64,000 nt of DNA, from the NCBI GenBank assembly GCA_050123235.1, contig JASFHL010000007.1, positions 75 to 64,074 of the forward strand, written 5' to 3'. Both the position numbers and the translations under genes were made by a program. Shown one piece after another: positions 2,856 to 32,252 of the stretch. The stretch is from Candidatus Woesebacteria bacterium. GTDB lineage: Bacteria > Patescibacteriota > Microgenomatia > UBA1400 > PJMF01. Positions within the stretch are counted from its first letter, which is position 1. Each line of letters opens with the position of its first letter. Below the pieces are notes generated by a model. It saw only the letters and a program-made list of their open reading frames with translations. It searched no databases and had not been told where the DNA came from.

Positions 2856-5057
2856 ATGGCACAGAAGAAAAAAACAAGATCTAGTCATAAACAGTCATTG
2901 CCAAAAAGAAGAATGAGGTTTGCTGTGCGTAAGTTAGCTAAGGGTTTGGGTGAGGCTGTAGCTAAAAGAACTTATTTGCGTACAGATAAAGATGGCAATT
3001 TAGAGAAATGGGCGGAAGTTGCTCATCGGGTTGCTTTGGGAAATTCTTCTTTGGCTATTGATAGCAATAAAAAACATCGTCAAGAAGAGTATGAGATTTT
3101 GAAAAAGCATATTGCTAATGCTTCTTTGTTGATGAGTGGTCGTCACTTACAACATGGTGATAAAGATCAGATTAAGAAAAACATGGAGGTCTTTACTAAC
3201 TGTGCTACTGCTTCTAGTTCTTTCTTGCTTTTTTATCTTTTGTTGAATGGTTCTGGAGTAGGTAGGGCTTATGATGATGATTTGATGGTTGTTGATTGGG
3301 ACAACATGCCCAATATTCACTGTGTTTTATCTGAAGATCACAAAGATTTTGTTTGGGGTGAGGATGAAAGTACTCAAGAGGCTAGACATAAATATCATAA
3401 GGCACATTGGTATAAAATACCTGATACTCGTGAGGGCTGGGCTCAAGCAGTAGAAAAAATAGAAGTGATGGCTTTTGAAAAGAAATATAAAGATGATTTG
3501 CTAGTAGTTGATTTCTCTGATGTTAGGGGCAAAGGTTCTTTGATTAAAGGAATGCAAAATAGACCTGCGTCAGGTCCTAGACCCTTGATTAAGGCTATTC
3601 AAAAAGTAGCGACTGTACGTAGCGCTGGTATGGAGCGTTGGAAACAAACACTATTTATTGATCATTATTTGTCTGAATGCGTTTTGGTTGGAGGGGCTAG
3701 AAGGGCAGCTAGAATTGCCACTAAAGCTTGGACTGATCCTGGTATTTTAGATTTTATCTCAGTTAAAAAGAATGGTTTCTTGTGGTCAGCTAATAATAGC
3801 GTGGCAGTTGATGATAAGTTTTGGAAGCAGAAAAGTAAGCACTCACAAAAGGTTTTGGATGCTGTTTTGCATGCTTCTTATCATCATAAAACAGGTGAAC
3901 CAGGTTTTGTAAATCAACACAAACTAGTACAGAATGATGAGGATTTTGATGGTTATCTAGATGGAAAATATGCTAGGAGCAAAAAATATAAGTCATTTAA
4001 AAGAACGACCAAGATGATGGCAGCAATTGCTAGGCATGCTAGTAGTAAATACTACACCCAAATTCCTAATCCTTGTGGTGAAATTACTCTCAATATGTTG
4101 GGTGGCTATTGTGTGATTGCTGATGTAGTACCTTATTTTGCTCCTAATACTGAGGCTGCAGAAGAAGCTTTTAGAGCTGCCAGCAGAGCTTTGATTAGAG
4201 TGAATACATATATGGATTGTTTGTACAAACGTGAGGTTAAAAGGACCAATAGAATTGGAGTTAGTATAACTGGGATTCATGAATATGCTTGGAATGCATT
4301 TGGTTTTGGTTTCAGAGATTTGATTGATGAAGAAAAGAGTAAGGATTTTTGGATGACCATTGCAAGATATAAAAGAGCAGTTATGGAAGAGGCAGAGAAA
4401 TACTCCAAACAGCTGAAAGTAACAGTACCTCACACCAATACTACTATCAAACCTTCTGGTACGATTTCTAAGTTATTTGCTTTGAGCGAAGGAGCACATC
4501 TACCGGCTATGCGTGAGTATTTACGCTGGGTGCAGTTTAGAGATGATGAGCCTTTAGTTAAGCGTTATAAACGCTTAGGTTATCCAGTGAAAGTTCTTAA
4601 GAGCTATCGTGGGACTACAGTAGTTGGTTTTCCCACCCAACCAGAAGTTTGTAAATTAGGTATGAATGGTAAGCTAGTGACTGCCAGCGAAGCAACCCCA
4701 GAGGAGCAATATAAATGGTTGATGTTATTAGAAAAGTATTGGATTGTTGGGGTTGATGTAAATGGTCAAGCTTTGTCAGAAGATACGGGTAATCAAGTTT
4801 CTTATACTCTCAAATATGATCCTAAAAAAGTTAGCTACAGACAGTTTTCTAGAATGCTAAGAAAATATCAACCTTTGATTAAAACTTGTAGTGTCATGCC
4901 ACAAGTAGATCGTACTGCTTATGAATATCAACCAGAAGAATCGCTAACGATTAATGAGTTTATGAAAGTGATCCGTGAGATTACTGATGATGAGGATGTT
5001 TTGGAAGATATTGATTTGGAGCACCTCAAGTGCCAAAATGGAGCTTGTCCGATATAG
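2856..5057 (+). CDS. nrdJ: class II (adenosylcobalamin-dependent) ribonucleotide reductase, monomeric RTPR-like
   Basis: 733-aa ORF carrying the active-site thiyl-cysteine motif 'NPCGEITL'. Operon position directly after nrdR. Length is similar to the Lactobacillus RTPR type. Confidence 0.7.
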   Translation: MAQKKKTRSSHKQSLPKRRMRFAVRKLAKGLGEAVAKRTYLRTDKDGNLEKWAEVAHRVALGNSSLAIDSNKKHRQEEYEILKKHIANASLLMSGRHLQHGDKDQIKKNMEVFTNCATASSSFLLFYLLLNGSGVGRAYDDDLMVVDWDNMPNIHCVLSEDHKDFVWGEDESTQEARHKYHKAHWYKIPDTREGWAQAVEKIEVMAFEKKYKDDLLVVDFSDVRGKGSLIKGMQNRPASGPRPLIKAIQKVATVRSAGMERWKQTLFIDHYLSECVLVGGARRAARIATKAWTDPGILDFISVKKNGFLWSANNSVAVDDKFWKQKSKHSQKVLDAVLHASYHHKTGEPGFVNQHKLVQNDEDFDGYLDGKYARSKKYKSFKRTTKMMAAIARHASSKYYTQIPNPCGEITLNMLGGYCVIADVVPYFAPNTEAAEEAFRAASRALIRVNTYMDCLYKREVKRTNRIGVSITGIHEYAWNAFGFGFRDLIDEEKSKDFWMTIARYKRAVMEEAEKYSKQLKVTVPHTNTTIKPSGTISKLFALSEGAHLPAMREYLRWVQFRDDEPLVKRYKRLGYPVKVLKSYRGTTVVGFPTQPEVCKLGMNGKLVTASEATPEEQYKWLMLLEKYWIVGVDVNGQALSEDTGNQVSYTLKYDPKKVSYRQFSRMLRKYQPLIKTCSVMPQVDRTAYEYQPEESLTINEFMKVIREITDDEDVLEDIDLEHLKCQNGACPI

Positions 5058-9216: not shown

Positions 9217-11772
9217 GTGAAAAAGAAGCATCCTATAAGAAGAGCAAATAAAAGAAAAAATATCAAAAGATATAAAAATATTACCAAAAAAAACAATGGT
9301 ATTAATTTTATTTTAGAGATAAAAAAGATAATCAAAAGATTAATTAATTTATCAGAATATAAAAAAAATATTCAAAAAATCAAAAAAAAGCTATTAAAAC
9401 TTAGAATTGCTATAAAGAAAAAGAATAAGTCTTTAAATAAAAAATATAGGATTGTTTTTAAACAAAAAAGAATTAAATCAAAATTTGAAAAATTTAAGCA
9501 AAAGTTTAATAAATCAAAAAAAGACTTTCAAAAATCTCTAAGAGCATATTTGCAAAATAAAAAGAAAACAATCAAGATTAAAAAAAAATCTGGTGTTATT
9601 TTTTCCCAAGGGATTTCTTTCAAAAGTTTTTATCAAGCTAAAAGAAAGTATTTAAGTAGTTTTTCAAAAAAATCATTAACTAAGCTTCAGCAGAATTTTT
9701 TCCATCCTATTGCCTTCTATTTAAAAAGACATCCCAGAAGAAGCTCTTTATCTTTGGGTATTACGGTATTAATCATTGTTAATAGCATTGCTGTTTATAA
9801 TTGGATTTTCAAGGATTTACCTTCACCAATGGGTTTGAGTGAGAATGAACAAGTGGTGACTACCAGAATATTAGATCGCAATGGTAATTTGCTTTTCAGG
9901 ATCTATAAAGATGAAAATCGCACTCTAATTCCGCTTTCTCAGGTACCAGAGCACATGATACAGGCTACTTTAGCTATAGAGGACCAAGATTTTTATAAGC
10001 ATCATGGTTTTTCTATTAAAGGAATTATCAGGGCTTTGATTGCCAATGTCCAAGGCAAGTCGATTCAAGGAGGTTCTACTATCACCCAACAATTAGTGAA
10101 AAATAGATTGCTTAGTTCAGAAAGAACCATTAGAAGAAAAATAAGAGAGGTGATTTTGTCAATTTTGGTAGAGGGAAGTTATTCCAAAGAAGAGATCTTA
10201 GAAATGTATTTAAATCAAGTTGCTTATGGTGGCTCAACCTATGGCATTGAGGAAGCAGCCTGGAGATACTTCAATAAAAAAGCAAAAAATTTAACTTTAG
10301 CTGAAAGTGCGATGTTGGCAGCTTTACCTGCAGCTCCTAGTGTTTACACGCCATTTGGCTCTAATCCAGAATTAGCCTATACTAGGCAACGTGAGGTACT
10401 AAGGAGGATGGTAGAAGATGATTATATTGAGCAAGAACAAGCAAATGTAGCTAAAAACGAAGAATTGAAATTTAGACAAGATGTAATTGATATAAGAGCT
10501 CCTCACTTTGTGATGTATTTGAAAAGACTATTGGCAGAAAGGTATGGTGAAGAGATTTTATATGAAGGTGGCTTAGAGGTAAGGACCACTCTAGATCTTG
10601 CTTTGCAAGAAGAGGTACAAAAAATTGTTACAGCAGAGGTAGAAAAACTAGCTCCTTTACGAGTGAATAATGGTGCCAGTCTGGTCACTAATCCTCAAAC
10701 TGGAGAAATTCTAGCGATGGTGGGTAGTAAGAATTACTTTGATTTTGCCAATGATGGACAAGTGAATGTTACAATTAGACCAAGACAGCCAGGTAGTTCT
10801 ATTAAACCTTTGACTTATGCCTTAGCTTTTGAGAAAGGTAAAACTCCATCTTCCACTATTGATGACAGCCCAATTACTTATAGTATTCCTGGCAGTCAAC
10901 CTTATAGCCCTAAAAACTATGATGGTAAATATCATGGTAGGGTAACTATTAGAGAAGCCTTAGCTTCTTCTTATAATATTCCTGCAGTGAAAACCTTAGC
11001 CAGTATTGGAGTTGAGCAAATGCTTGATAAGGCGGAAGAAATAGGTATTAGCACTTGGACTGATCGTAAGCGTTTTGGTTTATCTCTGACTTTAGGAGCT
11101 GGTGAAGTATTGATGACTGATATGGCAAAACTCTATGCTACTTTTGCTAATTTGGGGAACACAGTGGATCTAAATCCTTTTTTGGAAATAAAAAATTATA
11201 AAGGAGAAGTTTTATATAAAAACAGCTGTGTCTTAAATAAAAAAGACTGTGTGGTTAGACCTACTTTTGATGCTCAGATAGCTTATCAAATCACTAGTAT
11301 TCTAGCTGATAATCAAGCTCGCACACCTGCTTTTGGCCCCAGAAGCGTTTTACATATTCCTAATCAAGAAGTGGCTGTCAAGACAGGTACAACTAATAAT
11401 TTACGTGATAACTGGACAATTGGTTATACTACTGATCGTTTGGTAGCAGTTTGGGTGGGTAATAACGACAATCAACCTATGAGTTATGTAGCTTCTGGTA
11501 TCACTGGCGCTTCGCCAATTTGGAACAACATTATGCTCTTATTGCTAGATGATGAGCAAGCACATGTTTTTGCTATTCCTGATGGTTTTGTAAAGCTTAA
11601 AGTTTGTAGTCCAACAGGCACTTTGCCATGTAAAGGTTGTCCAGTGATAAGAGAAGAAATTTTTATTATTGGCACTGAACCTAAAAAGGCTTGTAATCCT
11701 GCTTGGTTTAAACCAGAAGATGAGGAAGAAGGGGAGAATAGAGACAAGATTTTAGAAGGAATTAGTATCTAA
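9217..11772 (+). CDS. class A penicillin-binding protein (PBP1A; transglycosylase + transpeptidase) with polylysine N-terminal extension
   Basis: GT51 motifs 'EDQDFYKHHGF' and 'GGSTITQQLVKN'. Transpeptidase motifs 'SSIKP' (SxxK), 'SYN' and 'KTGTT'. A single TM precedes the GT51 module. Confidence 0.85.
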   Translation: MKKKHPIRRANKRKNIKRYKNITKKNNGINFILEIKKIIKRLINLSEYKKNIQKIKKKLLKLRIAIKKKNKSLNKKYRIVFKQKRIKSKFEKFKQKFNKSKKDFQKSLRAYLQNKKKTIKIKKKSGVIFSQGISFKSFYQAKRKYLSSFSKKSLTKLQQNFFHPIAFYLKRHPRRSSLSLGITVLIIVNSIAVYNWIFKDLPSPMGLSENEQVVTTRILDRNGNLLFRIYKDENRTLIPLSQVPEHMIQATLAIEDQDFYKHHGFSIKGIIRALIANVQGKSIQGGSTITQQLVKNRLLSSERTIRRKIREVILSILVEGSYSKEEILEMYLNQVAYGGSTYGIEEAAWRYFNKKAKNLTLAESAMLAALPAAPSVYTPFGSNPELAYTRQREVLRRMVEDDYIEQEQANVAKNEELKFRQDVIDIRAPHFVMYLKRLLAERYGEEILYEGGLEVRTTLDLALQEEVQKIVTAEVEKLAPLRVNNGASLVTNPQTGEILAMVGSKNYFDFANDGQVNVTIRPRQPGSSIKPLTYALAFEKGKTPSSTIDDSPITYSIPGSQPYSPKNYDGKYHGRVTIREALASSYNIPAVKTLASIGVEQMLDKAEEIGISTWTDRKRFGLSLTLGAGEVLMTDMAKLYATFANLGNTVDLNPFLEIKNYKGEVLYKNSCVLNKKDCVVRPTFDAQIAYQITSILADNQARTPAFGPRSVLHIPNQEVAVKTGTTNNLRDNWTIGYTTDRLVAVWVGNNDNQPMSYVASGITGASPIWNNIMLLLLDDEQAHVFAIPDGFVKLKVCSPTGTLPCKGCPVIREEIFIIGTEPKKACNPAWFKPEDEEEGENRDKILEGISI

Positions 11773-25054: not shown

Positions 25055-25141
25055 ACAATAAATGTAAGTCTTTAGAGCGCGAAGCTTCACTTCTTAGATT
25101 AGTGGAACTTTACTAGGATTGTTTTAAAATGTAGCAGAGGT

Positions 25142-25215
25142 GGGATTTGAACCCACGACCTTCGGTTTATGAATCCGATGCTCTAACCAACTGAGCTACC
25201 CTGCCAAGTAAAACG
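25142..25215 (-). tRNA. tRNA with CAU anticodon (Met elongator or Ile2-lysidine type)
   Basis: Reverse complement reads GGCAGGGTAGCTCAGTTGGTTAGAGCA-TCGGA-TTCATAA-ACCGA-AGGTC-GTGGGTTCAAATCCCAC-CTCTGC. D and T arms are canonical and the anticodon loop is TT-CAT-AA. G1:C72 means it is not an initiator. CCA is not encoded. Confidence 0.8.
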
Positions 25216-25357
25216 AGTTAGAATTTTTATAAGTCGCTTATTAGCTTAACTGCAAACATGCAGATCGCTTAGATTAAATTCAACGTCCTTGATTATATCA
25301 GACTACTTGGGGTATAATAAACCCCTCTTTATATCTCTTTAGGAAAATATAAAAGAC

Positions 25358-25425
25358 GCGCGGGATAGTGTACGGTGCACGTGAGGCTCATAATCTTACA
25401 GGCTAGGTTCGACTCCTAGTCCCGC
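25358..25425 (+). other. tRNA-like sequence with CAU anticodon loop (possible second tRNA, or an att-site tRNA remnant)
   Basis: CGCGGGA...TCCCGCA acceptor with a C1:A72 mismatch. T arm CTAGG-TTCGACT-CCTAG. Anticodon arm TGAGG-CTCATAA-TCTTA. The D loop is short (5 nt). It abuts or overlaps the 3' end of the serine recombinase gene. Confidence 0.35.
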
Positions 25426-27176
25426 AACAATGAGGGAATGAGAGGTTGTAGATAGGTTAATTTGTCCTCTACATCCATCAATTTTCCAGGTTCGACCGAA
25501 ATACCTAAGTCTTTTGCTTCTTGCTTGCATTTTTCTATCATCCAAAATGGGTTATCCCGATTTATCAACACTTTTTTATTATGTAGCTTTAGGTTCGACC
25601 CAAGCATCTGAAGTATTTGAGTCTTAGTTTTAACATCACCTTGAGCAAACCAATAACGGGCATAGCAGGCAAACTCGAAAGTTTTTTTTGATATTTCAAT
25701 CCAATCATATTGCCTTTGGTCCGTTGTTTGCATATCATTTTTTACTGTCTCAATTTCTTTTTTAAGTTTACTGAGTTCTGCCTCATAAGCTTCTTTCTCT
25801 TCTTCACTGGATTCTTCATATAGATCAGTAAAGCGGTGCTTTGTCATCCTTCTAAGCCTGGATTTGAGCTTCTCGTAGTTGGTAGTATTTCGTTTAGTAG
25901 CATCCTGGTCCTGGTCCACTTCTTTGTCATTTAATTCACTTATGTGATTAATAGCCCAATCTTTGAAGTCAGGATCAATCTCGAATTTTTTTAACTCATT
26001 GTCAATTTGTTCTTCAAGCTTTCCTATTTCTAAATATCCTTGAGAACAATTTTTATTGACCTTTTTGGTGCAGTGATAGTAGATGTAATGGAGAATAGTG
26101 GGGTTTTTCATCAATTCTATTTTCAAACCACACTTAATACACCTATCTCTTTTCCTTGTTTTAGCAAATTTTTTGCTACATTTTGGACAAATTATTTGCC
26201 ATTTTTCCTCAGCAGTGATAAAACCACCACATTCACCACAAGTCATAATCCCTTTATAGGGAAAATCATATTTTTTTTGTATCGAGCGGCTTTTTTTACC
26301 TAGTCTAATCTGGATAATATCCCATTCATCTTTAGTAAACATTTTTGGGTATTTATGTTCACTTTCTTGGGTTACGCCTTCGATCTTTCTACTCATAACT
26401 CCATAATAAAAAGGGTCAGATAAAAGTCTGTAATAAGTTGATCTTGAAAGCGGTCCATCTCCTTGTTTTCTTTGAGGTAGGGTCCTGTATCCCATATCAT
26501 TATTGAGCCAGTTTAAACTTTCTAAAACGGTCATTTCACCGCTAATTATTTTTTTTCCAGCCTGTTGTAGCAAAGAAAATCTTTTTTGATCTACTTTAAC
26601 ATCGCGTTTTTTGGTAAAAGGATGAGTAAAATTAATAAATCCTTGCTTAGCTGGACCACCCCATTCTTTATTCTCAAAAAATTTATACTTATTTCCACTA
26701 TGAACATGGTCCGAAAGCTTAGTTGATTCATACTGTGATTGACTCAAGGCAAACTGGAGCAGCAAAATACCTTCGGCACTGTTATCAAATGTATAAGTGG
26801 CAAACTTAATATCTAGAATCTTTTTATCTGCTATGAGTTGCACGATTTTTCCTGCCTCAGTGGGGTTCCTTGAGAGTCTATTAGGGTGAAATACAATTAA
26901 GCCTGTTACTTTGCCTGCCTCAATTAAGTTAATCAATTTATTAAACTCGGGACGGTTGTCTGGTTTATAAGCACTTTTGCTTTCTGATAGATGATAACTT
27001 CTCTTATATTCTTTTTTTGGGAAACGTTTTGCTAGTTCTTGTCTCTGGCGAGGTATTGAGACATTCTGCTTATTAGATTTTTCATCTGATGAACGCCTGC
27101 TATATTCTGCCCAGATAATTTTATTTGGTGTGATGTTTATTCTTGGCATATAAAAACCCTCTCTGGGTGGACTCAA
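25416..27176 (-). CDS. large serine recombinase (phage-integrase type)
   Basis: N-terminal resolvase catalytic motif 'AEYSRRSSDEKSNKQ' (nucleophile Ser). Followed by a recombinase domain and a zinc ribbon 'CGECGG...CPKCSKKF', then a coiled-coil C-terminus. Confidence 0.8.
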   Translation of the reverse strand: MSPPREGFYMPRINITPNKIIWAEYSRRSSDEKSNKQNVSIPRQRQELAKRFPKKEYKRSYHLSESKSAYKPDNRPEFNKLINLIEAGKVTGLIVFHPNRLSRNPTEAGKIVQLIADKKILDIKFATYTFDNSAEGILLLQFALSQSQYESTKLSDHVHSGNKYKFFENKEWGGPAKQGFINFTHPFTKKRDVKVDQKRFSLLQQAGKKIISGEMTVLESLNWLNNDMGYRTLPQRKQGDGPLSRSTYYRLLSDPFYYGVMSRKIEGVTQESEHKYPKMFTKDEWDIIQIRLGKKSRSIQKKYDFPYKGIMTCGECGGFITAEEKWQIICPKCSKKFAKTRKRDRCIKCGLKIELMKNPTILHYIYYHCTKKVNKNCSQGYLEIGKLEEQIDNELKKFEIDPDFKDWAINHISELNDKEVDQDQDATKRNTTNYEKLKSRLRRMTKHRFTDLYEESSEEEKEAYEAELSKLKKEIETVKNDMQTTDQRQYDWIEISKKTFEFACYARYWFAQGDVKTKTQILQMLGSNLKLHNKKVLINRDNPFWMIEKCKQEAKDLGISVEPGKLMDVEDKLTYLQPLIPSLLRD

Positions 27177-27250
27177 ATCAAACTAATGACTTGTCCCAAA
27201 GAGGGTATTTATAGTCACTAGTTTAAGATTGAGTCCATAATCATTTTATA

Positions 27251-27439
27251 CTAATTTTCATTACTAAGTTGATTTAAAATATCTTGGTCCTCAATTGGGA
27301 TTGGTTTATAAATTAGAGCGAATCGCTTTAATTCCTTTAAAGCCATAACTTGAGCTTCTTCATAATCAAGCCATACACCGCATTTCTTTTGGTAAAGTTT
27401 TTGAAAGCTGGTGATGGCTTCGTGGCTTAGTTGCATCAC
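27251..27439 (-). CDS. hypothetical small protein
   Basis: 62-aa ORF in the same orientation as the recombinase block. Confidence 0.3.
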   Translation of the reverse strand: MMQLSHEAITSFQKLYQKKCGVWLDYEEAQVMALKELKRFALIYKPIPIEDQDILNQLSNEN

Positions 27440-28092
27440 AGAATAGTCCTTTCATCTGCTGTAATGTGTTCATCAAGCCATTTCATGTCTTCTGGTGGTA
27501 AATACTGGAAACCTTCTTCCTTATGAATGCGTTGGTAATCAGCCATAGTTCTTTGGTTTCCAACGGGGAGTGTGGTAACCACAGGGCTATTAACTTTAGA
27601 GTTAACCTTAGAGGAATTTAGAGTTCTAGGAGAATCAATCTCGAGGCAATTACGAACGGTTTGTTCAAAAGATTGAACTTTTGCTTCAGTTATTTGAAAA
27701 TTAGGTGCAATATTTTGAATAATTTGTTCAAACGATTGATTTAGTTCTTTTTGCTGAAATTGACTAGCTTGACCACCCCATTTTTTAGTTGTGGCTATAT
27801 ATCTTTCAGCATTGAAAATCTCATAAGTCTGTGGTTCTTGTGTAGGAATTAAAATACCTAAGGTTGTTAACTTAGTTATTTTTGTCCTAATTGAATTTGT
27901 GGAGCTATACCCTAAACAGGAGGCAAACTGTTTAAAATCTATTTTTACCTTTTTATATTGGCTATTTCTTGAATCAAACCCCATTTGATCAAGGCATAAC
28001 TCAAAAATAATAAATTCCTCTCTAGTTAAAATTTCGTGTTTTACCAGGAGAAAGCGGTTGCGATGAGAGGGGCGATAAGCATTGAAATTCAT
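27436..28092 (-). CDS. hypothetical protein with N-terminal winged-helix-like region (element replication/regulation candidate)
   Basis: 218 aa. No catalytic motif. Overlapping stop/start couplings with its neighbours suggest an operon. Confidence 0.35.
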   Translation of the reverse strand: MNFNAYRPSHRNRFLLVKHEILTREEFIIFELCLDQMGFDSRNSQYKKVKIDFKQFASCLGYSSTNSIRTKITKLTTLGILIPTQEPQTYEIFNAERYIATTKKWGGQASQFQQKELNQSFEQIIQNIAPNFQITEAKVQSFEQTVRNCLEIDSPRTLNSSKVNSKVNSPVVTTLPVGNQRTMADYQRIHKEEGFQYLPPEDMKWLDEHITADERTIL

Positions 28093-28358
28093 TACACCCC
28101 TTCATTAAATGCCTCCCAGGCAATCATGAAGTCAGTTAAGGTTCTATAATTACCTTCATTAATTGCTTGAACTGTTTCACCAAAATTAGTTAAAATTTTT
28201 CCATAATTGATTTTTAGGTAAAAAAAATCGACTTCTGAGATTTTTGCTTGCTTAACTTTATAAAGAATTCGTCTTCTTTTTTTGGAAAAGTAGTGCTTAA
28301 CCCTTCCATCTTTAAAAAAGATTTTTAGTTGATATCTCTTGGGTTTTTGAATTTTCAT
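28092..28358 (-). CDS. hypothetical small basic protein
   Basis: 88 aa, basic, first gene of the leftward block. Confidence 0.3.
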   Translation of the reverse strand: MKIQKPKRYQLKIFFKDGRVKHYFSKKRRRILYKVKQAKISEVDFFYLKINYGKILTNFGETVQAINEGNYRTLTDFMIAWEAFNEGV

Positions 28359-28383
28359 AAAAAAACTCCTTAGTAACTCCAGG

Positions 28384-28465
28384 TACGGAGTGTGACCTAG
28401 AGTTGCTAAAGAGTTTTTATCACTCCGTTTTTAGGCAAAAAAAAACCACGCAAAAAATTGCGTGG
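28384..28465. terminator. divergent-block hairpins
   Basis: CGGAGTG...CACTCCG+TTTTT on the plus strand. On the minus strand, a 9-nt A-run followed by CCACGCA-aaaaat-TGCGTGG gives a hairpin with a downstream T-run. Confidence 0.4.
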
Positions 28466-28482
28466 ATGTATTTTTATCCTAG

Positions 28483-28830
28483 TTGAAAGCGATTATAACA
28501 TATAGTTTTTTTTACAAAAGTAGTATATTCTCTTTAGAGAAAGATAGTTTAGCTATGTATAACAAACCAATGTCCCGTCAAGCTCTTTATTCCAAGGTTA
28601 GTAGTTATACTCCAGAAATCATTGATCGTCTTTTAGAGCTGAGTCGATCTTCCAATGAGAATGTTGCATTAGGAGCTTGCAAAACTTTACTTAGCAAATC
28701 AATTCCAGACTTAAAGGCTTTAAATGCAGCTGGTTTTGAAAATTATCAGCATGTGCGGAATGTTATCTATTTGCCTATAGAAAAAAAATGTTTGATCAAT
28801 AATGGGACGACTAACTTACCAGACTCATAG
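28483..28830 (+). CDS. hypothetical protein
   Basis: 115 aa. A more likely start is the internal Met 'MYNKPMSRQ'. Confidence 0.3.
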   Translation: MKAIITYSFFYKSSIFSLEKDSLAMYNKPMSRQALYSKVSSYTPEIIDRLLELSRSSNENVALGACKTLLSKSIPDLKALNAAGFENYQHVRNVIYLPIEKKCLINNGTTNLPDS

Positions 28831-28883
28831 AGGGGGGAGTGGTATAATGTATAATAGATTAAGTAAAATTAATCTTTGGACTT

Positions 28884-30548
28884 ATGCCTTCAAATAAAAC
28901 CTCTAAAACTAAGGTAAAAACGAAAAAACGTAAAACTTCAACTAAAACTCGCAAAAAAAAGTCTATTTCAAAAGTAAAAAAGGGAACTAAAAAGACTTCT
29001 ATTGCATCATTTTGCCCTGATTGTGGTACAAAACTTACTAAGACTGCTAAATTTTGTTCAGGCTGTGGTGAGAAGATAGCAAGTATCACAAGTAATAGTG
29101 AAAAGAGTAGAAATAAGCAAACTTTTTCATTGTTTAAAACTGTAATTCACTACTTTGAACGGATAAAACAAATTGATCGGAAAGTTGCTATAGCTATCGT
29201 GGTTATGATAGGCATACTATGCATTGGCATAGGCCATAAGTTAGGTGTTACAGATAGAATCATAATTGCAACGAGACAATGTTCAATAACCAATTCATCA
29301 GAAAAAGCACTTAACTCAGTTGTAAAAATAACAACTGATATGAATAGTGGTAGTGGTTTTTTTGTTGACGAGACTCATATTGTTACGAATAACCATGTTA
29401 TGGAGGGTGTTAAAGAAGCTAATATCACGCTTGGAACAGGTAAACTGACGAAAGCTAAGATTATTGGTTCAGATGAAGAAGCCGATATTGCTGTTCTAGA
29501 AATTGATGATGAAATAAAACCAGAATATTTGAAATGGGCTGAAGTAAAAGAAAAAGTTGCATCGGATATTGTAGCTATAGGTTTTCCTTTAAGTGACGAA
29601 GAATCGCTTAAGGGTGATGCTACTGTTACCAAAGGGACTATTTCTGCATATCGTGATGGTCTATATGGTATTCAGTATATACAAACTGATACGAGCATAA
29701 ATCCCGGCAATAGCGGTGGACCATTGCTTAATGAATGTGGTGAAGTGATCGGAGTAAATGATTTATATTTTAATCCCATAGGAAGTGCAGATCCTATTTT
29801 TTATGCCATCAACACAAAGTCAGCTAAGAAGGCAGTTGAAAAAATTCTAAAAGATCCTTCATATTCTGAACCTGTAGGCACATTGCCAAGATTTGAGGAT
29901 AACATAGAGCCTACTGATGTTGTCATGGCTTATTATCAGGGTTTGACAGAGGGCAGCTACATGATGTCGTATCAACTATTTACTATTGGCCGTCAAAAGG
30001 AATGGAAACCTGAGGAATGGCAAAATTTGTTTACAAATGTTCTGTCTATTGAGGTAAAAAATATCCAACAAATATCTACTGATCCAGTAAAAGTAAAAGC
30101 TGAAATGGATTTATATACAACTGATGGAGTTAATCTTTTAGTTAAGACAGCAGATTCGATTTGGACATTAAAGTATTCTCTTGGAAGGCTGGCACTTGAT
30201 GATGTTGAAATAGAATATGGTGAAGAGAAAGCGATATTTAATCAAGATTACGAAGATGCAATTAGGTTTAACAAAAGTTTAGCCGATACAGTTTATCCGG
30301 CTATTTTAAATAAAGACATGTCCTATTATCCTCAGCAACAGGTTGTAATTATTAAAGCTTTGATTGAAGAAAATACTGAAATTATCAACAGGCTTTTTCA
30401 AAAGGTAACCAATGGTGAGCCTTTGGATGAGTCGGAATTTTATGATAATGATCTTTTTGTTTCCAATCATGATCAAATATTAGACATAAACAAGGAATTT
30501 GAAAGCATTGATTTACAGAATTATTATTTAAATTATTACTCTGAGTAG
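28884..30548 (+). CDS. membrane-anchored trypsin-like (S1/HtrA-fold) serine protease with N-terminal zinc ribbon and unknown C-terminal domain
   Basis: Polybasic N-terminus, then 'CPDCGTKLTKTAKFCSGCGEKI', then TM 'VAIAIVVMIGILCIGI'. Catalytic triad contexts 'THIVTNNHV', 'DIAVLEID' and 'GNSGGPLLN'. The C-terminal ~220-aa domain matches nothing I recognise. Confidence 0.65.
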   Translation: MPSNKTSKTKVKTKKRKTSTKTRKKKSISKVKKGTKKTSIASFCPDCGTKLTKTAKFCSGCGEKIASITSNSEKSRNKQTFSLFKTVIHYFERIKQIDRKVAIAIVVMIGILCIGIGHKLGVTDRIIIATRQCSITNSSEKALNSVVKITTDMNSGSGFFVDETHIVTNNHVMEGVKEANITLGTGKLTKAKIIGSDEEADIAVLEIDDEIKPEYLKWAEVKEKVASDIVAIGFPLSDEESLKGDATVTKGTISAYRDGLYGIQYIQTDTSINPGNSGGPLLNECGEVIGVNDLYFNPIGSADPIFYAINTKSAKKAVEKILKDPSYSEPVGTLPRFEDNIEPTDVVMAYYQGLTEGSYMMSYQLFTIGRQKEWKPEEWQNLFTNVLSIEVKNIQQISTDPVKVKAEMDLYTTDGVNLLVKTADSIWTLKYSLGRLALDDVEIEYGEEKAIFNQDYEDAIRFNKSLADTVYPAILNKDMSYYPQQQVVIIKALIEENTEIINRLFQKVTNGEPLDESEFYDNDLFVSNHDQILDINKEFESIDLQNYYLNYYSE

Positions 30549-30673
30549 TTAATATTATTTTGCTGTAGCTGCAAGTAAGTCTTCTTGACTATTTTTATCT
30601 TTTATTTATTTTTATTAGGTTAATAGATGATTATAGATTGTGTATTTTTTTGATGCATTAAGCTATACTAACA

Positions 30674-30889
30674 ATGTGGGAAGAAAAACAAGATTTAAGC
30701 AAATTTGTATTTGAATTACCAGGTAGATATTATGCTCAAGCAGATTGCTTAACTAGAGGTAGGTATAAAATAACTATATCTGTTTATGGTAAAAATGCGA
30801 AAAAAATAACCAGAAATTTTTTTATATCATGGTCGGGTAATTGGAAAGACAATACAAATGATATGTTTAAAGAGTTAGTTATTAAGTGA
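30674..30889 (+). CDS. hypothetical small protein
   Basis: 71-aa ORF. Confidence 0.25.
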   Translation: MWEEKQDLSKFVFELPGRYYAQADCLTRGRYKITISVYGKNAKKITRNFFISWSGNWKDNTNDMFKELVIK

Positions 30890-30930
30890 GAGGATATCTA
30901 TCATGATAATTTGGTATACTCTATTTTAGA

Positions 30931-31437
30931 ATGCTTAGCTTTTTTGGTACCAAATCCCCTCCAAAGTTTACTCCTAAAGATACTAAGGATACAAAAAAAT
31001 TGATGAAGTTTGTTAAGTGGTTTGTTAACAATACCTCTAATGGAAAACTTTTGATTGATGAAGTGTCACGGTCTATTTTTGCTAGTGGTATTAGACCTGT
31101 TTCTGGTACAAGGAATACACCAAATTTGCCTCCTGAATTGGATACTGATCCGTATTATTGGTTTTTAGAGAGAATTAGATTAAGCCTAATAATGATATCT
31201 GAGAGAGAAGAAAACGACGTTAATGGAGTTATTTCCTTGATGGAGGAAGAGCTTGCTAGACATACTGCTGAGCTTAAAAGTTTATGCGAACAATATGGTG
31301 TAGTGTTTGAAGGTACGGATGTTTTAGCTGAAATTGAAAAAATTAGTAATGATATTGATAGGAAATGGTTTAAAAGTAAGTTGTTAGATTTTCGTTTTTC
31401 AATTCTAGAGTTAGATATCATCAAAACACTTTATTAG
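30931..31437 (+). CDS. hypothetical protein
   Basis: 168-aa ORF, helical and acidic. Confidence 0.35.
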   Translation: MLSFFGTKSPPKFTPKDTKDTKKLMKFVKWFVNNTSNGKLLIDEVSRSIFASGIRPVSGTRNTPNLPPELDTDPYYWFLERIRLSLIMISEREENDVNGVISLMEEELARHTAELKSLCEQYGVVFEGTDVLAEIEKISNDIDRKWFKSKLLDFRFSILELDIIKTLY

Positions 31438-31549: not shown

Positions 31550-31575
31550 AAAAAAGACCCACAAGTGGGTCTTTT
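31550..31575. terminator. bidirectional Rho-independent terminator between convergent genes
   Basis: AAAAAGACCCAC-aa-GTGGGTCTTTT, with a perfect 10-bp stem flanked by A and T runs. Confidence 0.65.
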
Positions 31576-31616: not shown

Positions 31617-32252
31617 TCACTTCCTAGTTATTTTAAAAGATGTACTTTGCTCCTTTTTTAAAATATGATCTCCTCTTTCTCTTAATAAAAGTCTGTGACT
31701 GGCTACATCAACTAATGGAGAACTAATCAGCCAGTCAGTATAAAAATTGGGAATTCTTTCTGATAGTACGCGATAGAGAGCTGTTAGATCATCTTTACTA
31801 ATTGAGCAGGCGATAGCTACAAAACAGCCACTTTTTTCTTTTAAACGTGATGTTGCCGTAACTAGTAAAGAAACAATTTTTTCTAAATCAGGCAAGTTAT
31901 GCAATTCATGAGCTTTCTTTGTTTTGAACTCTTTTTCAGTTAAAAATCTACCCCAGATAGGAGGAGCTTTCATAATAATATAATCAAAATAATGAAGAGG
32001 ATAATACTCTCCCAGCTTATAAGCATCACCAATGATATGATTTGGTCCATTGAATGTTCCTAGATCTACTGAATGATACTCACCACCACGCTCTCTGATA
32101 GGGAGCATCATCGATGATTGAGCATCTCCTGAAAAAAGTTCAAGTATGCATTTACCTCTTAGATCTTCTGGTAATTGAAGCCATTCTTTGACTGCTTTTT
32201 CTGCCACAGGTTCAGGATCTGGATACCACTTTATTCTTGGATCTTCTGACAT
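31617..32252 (-). CDS. SAM-dependent methyltransferase-like protein (amino-MTase motif order I then IV, atypical 'APPIW')
   Basis: 'ILELFSGDAQSS' is an FxGxG-like motif I. About 55 aa later, 'DYIIMKAPPIW' resembles (D/N/S)PP(Y/F/W) with Ala in the first position. Confidence 0.3.
   Translation of the reverse strand: MSEDPRIKWYPDPEPVAEKAVKEWLQLPEDLRGKCILELFSGDAQSSMMLPIRERGGEYHSVDLGTFNGPNHIIGDAYKLGEYYPLHYFDYIIMKAPPIWGRFLTEKEFKTKKAHELHNLPDLEKIVSLLVTATSRLKEKSGCFVAIACSISKDDLTALYRVLSERIPNFYTDWLISSPLVDVASHRLLLRERGDHILKKEQSTSFKITRK

Follow-up and report, generated by a model that had tools for sequence, protein, structure and literature searches.

A predicted membrane-anchored S1C serine protease with an NTF2-like domain and a small helical module, encoded beside a serine-recombinase element in a Candidatus Woesebacteria genome

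RsgI9 of Clostridium thermocellum (7SJY) is a single-pass membrane protein that displays, outside the cell, an S1C fold followed by an NTF2-like domain, and its S1C domain has been described as protease-like and cellulose-binding (PMC10328401). It is the only studied representative of an architecture, consisting of a membrane anchor, an S1C protease and an NTF2-like domain, that is recurrent and has no name. Here we describe a 554-residue protein of this architecture, encoded in a 64,000-nucleotide stretch of DNA (hereafter the window) from the metagenome-assembled genome (MAG) of a Candidatus Woesebacteria bacterium, an uncultured, ultra-small member of the Candidate Phyla Radiation (CPR). 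The window comprises positions 75-64,074 of the forward strand of contig JASFHL010000007.1 (assembly GCA_050123235.1), its host genome is of low GC content (0.34), and the region under study occupies its positions 28,483-31,437. NCBI lists a protein, from a Candidatus Woesebacteria MAG, that is 100% identical to the product and bears the label 'trypsin-like peptidase domain-containing protein'. This label can now be replaced by a better annotation. The protein is a rare combination of known modules plus one small helical module without a known family.

Several characterized groups of proteins resemble the 554-residue protein in part. With HtrA, DegP, DegQ and DegS (MEROPS S1C) it shares the protease domain (30-42% identity), the catalytic triad, the GNSGGP motif and, by prediction, an extracytoplasmic location, and DegS is likewise anchored in the membrane by an N-terminal helix. 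HtrA and DegP, however, carry one or two C-terminal PDZ domains, whereas the protein described here has an NTF2-like domain and a three-helix bundle instead; its zinc ribbon, predicted to be cytoplasmic, is a further difference from HtrA. Because it contains no PDZ domain and scores below the family cut-offs (138.1 bits against 416.2 bits for the TIGR02037 Do family), the protein does not belong to HtrA, although it would work in the way that HtrA/DegS-type proteases do. MarP proteases have four membrane helices at the N-terminus and are not known to contain an NTF2-like domain. They are similar in being membrane-anchored, PDZ-less, extracytoplasmic S1 proteases, and the MarP-type model (NF033740) matches the protease domain with an E-value of 3.3e-26, but 92 bits against a cut-off of 250 bits places the 554-residue protein outside that group as well. 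With Staphylococcus aureus TcaA and its relatives the protein has in common a zinc ribbon at the N-terminus, a single span and a large outer portion that ends in a homologous NTF2-like domain (PMC10328498), although the TcaA middle domains (TcaA_2nd and TcaA_3rd_4th; PF22813 and PF22820) are absent from the 554-residue protein, which has the S1C protease in their stead, and the helical bundle is absent from P0136, the TcaA-like sequence that was read. RsgI9 itself differs in possessing two domains that Pfam does not find in the 554-residue protein, an RsgI anti-sigma-I domain at the N-terminus and an autoproteolytic domain in the periplasm, and in lacking both the zinc ribbon and the C-terminal helical bundle; its S1C domain is termed protease-like, whereas the triad of the Woesebacteria protein is intact.

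The catalytic domain is recognized by Pfam Trypsin_2 (E 2.5e-30) and contains H171, D201 and S277, the last within GNSGGP, so that the complete S1 triad proposed in the initial annotation is confirmed. All three residues are invariant in a five-sequence alignment of the full-length family members, and the conservation of the triad and of the oxyanion motif indicates that the enzyme is probably active. The best sequence matches of the domain in the PDB are HtrA, DegQ, MucD, DegS, AlgW and HTRA1, its structural matches include DegS, DegP and HtrA1, and its best NCBIfam matches are Do/HtrA, HhoA/HtrA, MarP and DegS, all of them far under the family cut-offs. Two cysteines are conserved as well. 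C133 (window position 29280) precedes the first protease strand by about 20 residues and C285 (29736) follows the catalytic serine by eight; both are invariant in the narrow family and in three distant proteins ordered membrane helix, S1C and NTF2, which suggests that the pair forms a disulfide outside the cytoplasm, conserved as a characteristic of proteins built in this way.

The tail of about 220 residues that follows the protease domain had been viewed as a novel domain, a description that holds for only part of it. Pfam finds no family on the last ~230 residues of any of the five family members scanned, even at E-values up to 10, and at the same threshold none of the five tails contains a PDZ domain. 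The AlphaFold2 (AF2) model of residues 322-554, with a mean predicted local distance difference test (pLDDT) score of 82.7, nevertheless consists of an alpha+beta cone, built from three helices and a long, curved, four-stranded sheet, and then a three-helix bundle. In Foldseek searches of the PDB the tail matched NTF2-fold proteins (a ketosteroid isomerase and a bile-acid dehydratase) and the S1C-NTF2 bi-domain structure of RsgI9. When the full-length model was compared with the whole PDB, 7SJY was the top match (E 3.4e-19, 326 aligned columns, 23% identity), ahead of all HtrA structures, since its two domains align in the same succession as those of the model. By sequence the relationship is more distant: 7SJY was outside the best 60 sequence matches listed, and the tail profile did not detect it either.

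Profile searches extend this assignment. Against 1.84 billion representatives (HMMER), the tail profile retrieved 88 at E <= 0.001, and among the 85 of these that were scanned with Pfam there were Trypsin_2 (18), TcaA domains (18), Zn_Ribbon_1 (15) and protein kinases (3), with TcaA_5th, the 'TcaA protein NTF2-like domain', in 5 and DUF4864 or MecA_N in some. TcaA_5th was not detected directly by Pfam in the tail of the query. In hhalign, the NTF2-like part aligned to the C-termini of 18 matches, chosen by length and C-terminal match and with P0139 and P0143 confirmed as TcaA-like, at a probability of 98.9% and an E-value of 3.1e-17. In addition, the query aligns across both domains, at 32-34% identity, with three proteins that look unrelated but have a membrane helix, S1C and NTF2 in this order. 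Residues ~340-452, which make up the first half of the tail, are thus a member of a widespread extracellular NTF2-like family whose pairing with S1C domains is recurrent, and the tail is only partly new. That the same module is found at TcaA-like ends and in the ectodomains of some Ser/Thr kinases points to a shared function in extracellular recognition.

The second half of the tail, a three-helix bundle modelled with pLDDT >90, matches no sequence in Pfam or the PDB and is the only part of the tail without a known family. It recurs after S1C domains in two other proteins, P0124 and P0167, and is a separable module; these ~100 residues represent a small new module on S1C proteases. In P0124 the bundle stands after an NTF2-like domain, and a Pro/Thr-rich linker and one more domain come after it. 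P0167 is a multi-span membrane protein in which the sole match to the profile lies after the S1C domain and spans the bundle, not the NTF2-like part.

On the N-terminal side of the protease domain the polybasic segment, the C4 zinc ribbon and the one transmembrane helix are all present as originally described. Residues 1-42 include 18 Lys or Arg and no Asp or Glu, the zinc ribbon (C44, C47, C58 and C61) scores 27.2 bits against a Zn_Ribbon_1 cut-off of 25, and the single hydrophobic peak in the protein (Kyte-Doolittle 2.27 over 19 residues) has a strongly basic N-terminal flank. The extent of this region varies among relatives. A long basic N-terminus is found in the query and P0004 but not in P0002, P0003 or P0005, and a zinc ribbon in three of the five aligned members; both features are absent from P0003 and P0005 and, judged by its sequence, from P0122. 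Given this variability, the conserved core of the family comprises the ectodomain and the membrane helix, preceded by a basic stub.

The family as a whole is very rare, with about seven clusters. A search of 5.8 billion protein clusters returned four other full-length relatives (P0002-P0005, 38-50% identity), to which a full HMMER scan of the 1.84 billion representatives added one complete protein (P0122) and one fragment (P0121). When metagenomes were scanned with the family alignment (A1), only generic HtrA genes were recovered, none of them carrying the C-terminal module. A viral origin of the protease was considered and rejected, as matches in IMG/VR and GenBank phages were confined to the protease domain; the C-terminal profile matched nothing in these phage loci or in BFVD.

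The five relatives reside in five different contexts. The P0004 gene (contig L001) follows dnaE, pyrG, upp, rplS and tRNA-Glu, while the others adjoin the gene for ATP synthase epsilon (P0002), a Fic gene (P0003), a transposase fragment (P0005), or unknown ORFs (open reading frames), a hydrolase and an ABC ATPase (P0122). None of the neighbours of the protease gene in the window has a detectable relative in the flanks of the family loci (L001, L002, L003 and L174/L175; tblastn, blastp and phmmer), nor do the other loci have neighbours in common with one another. In L001 the tRNA-Glu (9693-9767) is directly upstream of the protease gene (10001-11716), and an ORF that weakly matches a CDI_toxin_EC869-like model is found two genes downstream of the latter. 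Variable regions next to tRNA genes may be a preferred site of the family. The proposal of a multi-gene system, in which the protease would act with small partners, is not borne out: no neighbour is common across loci, the 168-residue ORF is an ORFan, and the family of the 115-residue ORF occurs with recombinases and terminases. The initial annotation had itself named a common known domain in the tail, such as PDZ, together with unconserved neighbours, as the outcome that would speak against a novel system; the neighbours are indeed unconserved and half of the tail is a known domain, albeit NTF2-like and not PDZ.

We consider it probable, with moderate confidence, that the 554-residue protein is a stand-alone surface protease that processes proteins of the envelope or surface or controls their quality; these proteins would then be its physiological substrates. 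The positive-inside rule and the presence of only one helix predict that the Lys-rich tail and the zinc ribbon are on the cytoplasmic side, with the helix at residues ~98-118 as anchor and the protease, NTF2-like domain and three-helix bundle outside the cell. The NTF2-like and helical modules would stand in for the PDZ domains of classical HtrA proteases, and probably select a substrate or ligand or gate the active site, by analogy with the HtrA PDZ domains and with the sensor role of NTF2-like domains in RsgI9, TcaA-like proteins and kinases. The protease would work apart from the small ORFs that flank it. Surface proteases deserve attention in CPR bacteria, given that these organisms spend their lives attached to other cells, but the present results do not point to a special role.

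It should be emphasized that several points weigh against this view. Activity and topology are predictions, and the independence of the gene was judged from only five loci with short flanks. The root-mean-square deviation between the model and 7SJY is ~15 Å over both domains, so that the relative orientation of the S1C and NTF2-like domains in the model is not reliable, and the structure models are of monomers only, HtrA/DegP proteases being trimer-based oligomers. A pure quality-control role also leaves the cytoplasmic zinc ribbon unexplained. The gene lies beside, and possibly within, a mobile element, and accessory genes for defence or exclusion are often located beside or in such elements. 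Finally, the nearest solved structure is that of a sensor, RsgI9, with a 'protease-like' domain for which no substrate cutting has been shown (PMC10328401, PMC12203970).

This last point raises the question of whether the protein signals across the membrane. The outer S1C-NTF2 unit could sense a ligand and pass the signal on through the zinc ribbon and basic tail, perhaps by a regulated cleavage that releases this cytoplasmic part as a fragment. Such a role would fit with a sensor ectodomain being the best structural match, with the fact that the same NTF2-like domain caps the portion outside the cell both in Ser/Thr kinases and in TcaA-like zinc-ribbon proteins, with the predicted organization of TcaA, which has an intracellular zinc finger, one span and its bulk outside the cell (PMC10328498), and with the description of the RsgI9 domain as a protease-like domain that binds cellulose. 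We nevertheless regard it as unlikely. RsgI_N was not detected by Pfam, and no sigma factor or other regulator was recognized among the adjacent ORFs examined, where RsgI anti-sigma factors would be expected to have sigI beside them. The zinc ribbon and basic tail through which the signal would travel are missing from P0003, P0005 and P0122, and the strict conservation of the triad argues for real proteolysis. The same conservation bears on the idea that the protease fold is catalytically silent and does no more than bind a ligand on its surface, a role proposed for RsgI9, whose S1C domain is reported to be protease-like and carbohydrate-binding (PMC10328401, PMC12203970) and which provides the closest structure. 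As H171, D201, S277 and GNSGGP are invariant in the family and in its wider relatives, and as the sequence is much closer to the active HtrA, DegS and DegQ than to RsgI9, we hold this to be very improbable.

It could also be argued that the protease, alone or with the 71- and 168-residue ORFs, is mobile-element cargo that functions in phage defence, superinfection exclusion or surface remodelling. In its fullest form this would make ~25.4-31.6 kb of the window a phage-satellite-like integrative element in which the protease and the two ORFans are cargo that remodels the surface for phage exclusion or for attachment to a host cell. The protease gene does lie directly downstream of a set of backbone genes (a serine recombinase at a tRNA, a Rep-like protein and a 91-residue protein whose homologues occupy the small-terminase position), the region closes at a two-way terminator, the protease region is matched by a functionally uncharacterized PHROG family (E 9e-41), and the orthologue in L001 follows tRNA-Glu and is near the ORF with the weak CDI-toxin match. 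In opposition to this, orthologues are found beside housekeeping genes, there is no conserved partner gene, and the catalytic domain is predicted to be outside the cell, unlike known protease defence effectors. The defence role that had been suggested for the protein also finds no support in PADLOC, in which its matches were limited to the generic protease fold (RT-Protease, HamA and Avs1b), with no system-specific match and no partner genes of known anti-phage systems nearby; PADLOC and PHROGs together gave only the protease fold and zinc ribbon for the protease, and nothing for the 115-, 71-, 168- and 211-residue ORFs.

Codon usage tells in the same direction. Measured against 42 host genes (mean log-odds 0.23, standard deviation 0.07), the five backbone genes (25416-28830) score 0.09-0.15, which is 1.1-1.9 standard deviations below the host mean, whereas the protease (0.21), the 168-residue ORF (0.21) and the 211-residue ORF (0.19) are host-like; the 71-residue ORF is low (0.11), but is short. 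These values hint, if only weakly, at an end of the foreign segment behind the 91-residue gene. Searches of the window revealed no element boundary: no other copy of an attachment (att) site, of the tRNA 3' half or of the anticodon arm was present, the sequence at 25060-25520 has no significant repeat, and there is no shift in composition (GC 0.334 versus 0.338). The closest genome found (L014, TrpRS 75% identical) retains synteny only to the right of trpS and therefore offers no empty site. The element may end right after the 91-residue gene or may reach the terminator at 31.55 kb. Placement of the protease within the island is plausible, but we think it doubtful that it is cargo with a function in phage defence, exclusion or surface remodelling, and equally so that the whole interval is a satellite of the kind outlined above. 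A stand-alone surface protease remains the interpretation we prefer.

Table 1. Features of the protease locus and the neighbouring element (positions are those of the window; residues are those of the 554-residue protein)
Feature	Position	Strand	Evidence
tRNA-Met (CAU)	25359-25428	+	ARAGORN; Rfam tRNA 43.3 bits
Large serine recombinase, left end of element	25416-27176	-	Resolvase E 1.6e-16; PHROG integrase E 8.8e-45
218-residue protein	27436-28092	-	Rep3_N (replication-initiator WH1) E 2.7e-4, 21.8 bits vs cut-off of 22.4
115-residue ORF / 91-residue gene	ORF 28483-28830 (open from TTG 28483); gene 28555-28830	+	ORF listing; NCBI; homology
554-residue membrane-anchored S1C (HtrA-type) serine protease	28884-30548	+	Trypsin_2; NCBI identity
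Lys/Arg-rich low-complexity N-terminus, residues 1-42	28884-29009	+	Composition; AF2 pLDDT <50
C4 zinc ribbon, residues 43-64	29010-29075	+	Pfam Zn_Ribbon_1 E 3.2e-6
Single transmembrane helix (predicted), residues ~98-118	29175-29237	+	Hydropathy; AF2 helix 99-119
S1C protease domain, residues ~133-325	29280-29858	+	Triad H171, D201, S277; C133/C285
NTF2-like domain, residues ~338-452	29895-30239	+	AF2; Foldseek; profile matches; hhalign
Three-helix bundle, residues ~454-553	30243-30542	+	AF2 helices 454-475, 484-510, 516-553
71-residue ORF	30674-30889	+	ORF listing; coding score
168-residue ORFan	30931-31437	+	Sole database match is itself
Terminator-like hairpin	31552-31575	both	10-bp stem, 4 G-C pairs, T tracts either side
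211-residue ORF, convergent	31617-32252	-	ORF listing

The element to the left of the protease is a more unusual lead than the protease itself. Its large serine recombinase, in which the Recombinase and Zn_ribbon_recom matches are weak and sub-threshold, is encoded by a gene whose 3' end overlaps the 3' end of tRNA-Met(CAU), the end of the tRNA coinciding with the last codons of the recombinase gene. The recombinase gene is followed by a 62-residue ORF, the 218-residue Rep-like protein, which has no plasmid match, an 88-residue ORF with a single borderline match in each of PADLOC (E 0.0095) and PHROGs (E about 0.009), and then, divergently oriented, the 91-residue gene. The interval 25359-28830 has the appearance of a small element, phage-satellite-like or integrative, that resides in a CPR genome. 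It resembles phage satellites, including the phage-inducible chromosomal islands, in being small and tRNA-associated, in having an integrase, a possible replication initiator and a homologue of a gene in the small-terminase position, and in the lack of any large terminase, portal or capsid homologue in the 64-kb window. These satellites, which a helper phage induces and packages, however, use a tyrosine recombinase as integrase, whereas the element described here has a serine recombinase.

The tRNA-Met at the left end is short (70 nucleotides), begins CGCGGG like an initiator tRNA, and scores 43 bits with Rfam as against 71 for another tRNA-Met(CAU), which lies at 25131-25205 on the minus strand, back to back with it and divergent. 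Between the 5' ends of the divergent 88-residue ORF and 91/115-residue gene is a perfect hairpin with an 8-bp stem, CCACGCAAAAAATTGCGTGG (28446-28465), which has A/T tracts on either side. Although it was flagged as a terminator acting in both directions, its site suggests that it may instead function as an operator, an origin or a site of recombination.

The 91-residue gene was originally read as a 115-residue ORF, one of three small ORFs said to be co-oriented with the protease gene. The coordinates, the strand and the coding nature of these ORFs were all confirmed, with codon-usage log-odds that, for every small ORF, are positive in the annotated frame alone and negative in each of the remaining five, so that they look like real genes; the first of them, however, more likely starts at ATG 28555, where both the NCBI annotation and the homology begin. 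The 91-residue protein has three database homologues, with ~60% identity across the first ~55 residues, and all three are encoded beside a large serine recombinase: immediately upstream of it in L177/L178 (L177 8001-8309), two small genes upstream in L179 (449-895), and immediately downstream in L181 (1334-1612). From this association the protein is a backbone component of the serine-recombinase element and not a partner of the protease.

A possible function is suggested by two phage contigs from IMG/VR, L184 (148-438) and L185 (787-1044), in which a homologue is encoded directly upstream of the large terminase gene, with portal and major head genes after the latter; in L185 the stop codon of the homologue overlaps the start of the terminase gene (ATGA). 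The gene for the small terminase subunit (TerS) normally has this place, just ahead of that for the large one. As the family matches no terminase hidden Markov model and nothing in Pfam, PHROGs or the PDB, a small-terminase assignment draws on gene position in these two related contigs, and the protein could be either TerS-like or a recombination directionality factor. If it is a true small terminase, the neighbouring element becomes a candidate phage satellite in a CPR bacterium, for which a limited literature search found no published report.

Contig L177 also provides a comparison for the element as a whole. Direct repeats of ~200 nucleotides (4366-4562 and 9938-10137), 91% identical and including tRNA-Val, bound a 5.57-kb segment that holds the 91-residue homologue, a serine recombinase whose gene overlaps the tRNA at its 3' end, and a SEC-C-motif protein; it also carries a 100% identical duplicate of tRNA-Ser. 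The window repeats this geometry, in which the 3' end of the recombinase gene overlaps a tRNA. The L177 segment is a bounded relative of the element in the window, with a different cargo.

The remaining ORFs near the protease are of narrow distribution. The 71-residue ORF recurs only as an identical copy in a contig from another sample (L176) and was not found near any protease relative in the family-locus flanks that were searched. The 168-residue ORF matched only itself in the 5.8 billion protein clusters and belongs to no Pfam, NCBIfam, PHROGs or PADLOC family. Both are lineage-specific genes. The bidirectional terminator reported downstream was flagged on both strands, and this terminator-like hairpin separates the 168-residue ORF from the convergent 211-residue ORF. 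The 'methyltransferase-like' label given to the latter could not be confirmed, since searches of Pfam, NCBIfam, PHROGs, PADLOC and phage records gave no match to it. Read by eye, the 211-residue sequence contains a loose, putative S-adenosylmethionine-methyltransferase motif I, ILELFSGDA, together with KAPPIW as a degenerate motif IV.

Motifs resembling TGNTATAAT/TGNTATACT, read by eye only, lie 5' of both the protease gene and the 168-residue ORF and hint at promoters of their own. These are an extended -10-like motif, TGGTATAAT (28840-28848), 35 nucleotides upstream of the protease start codon, and a second one, TGGTATACT (30912-30920), 10 nucleotides upstream of the start codon of the 168-residue ORF. 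The two genes may be transcribed separately, the latter with a very short leader.

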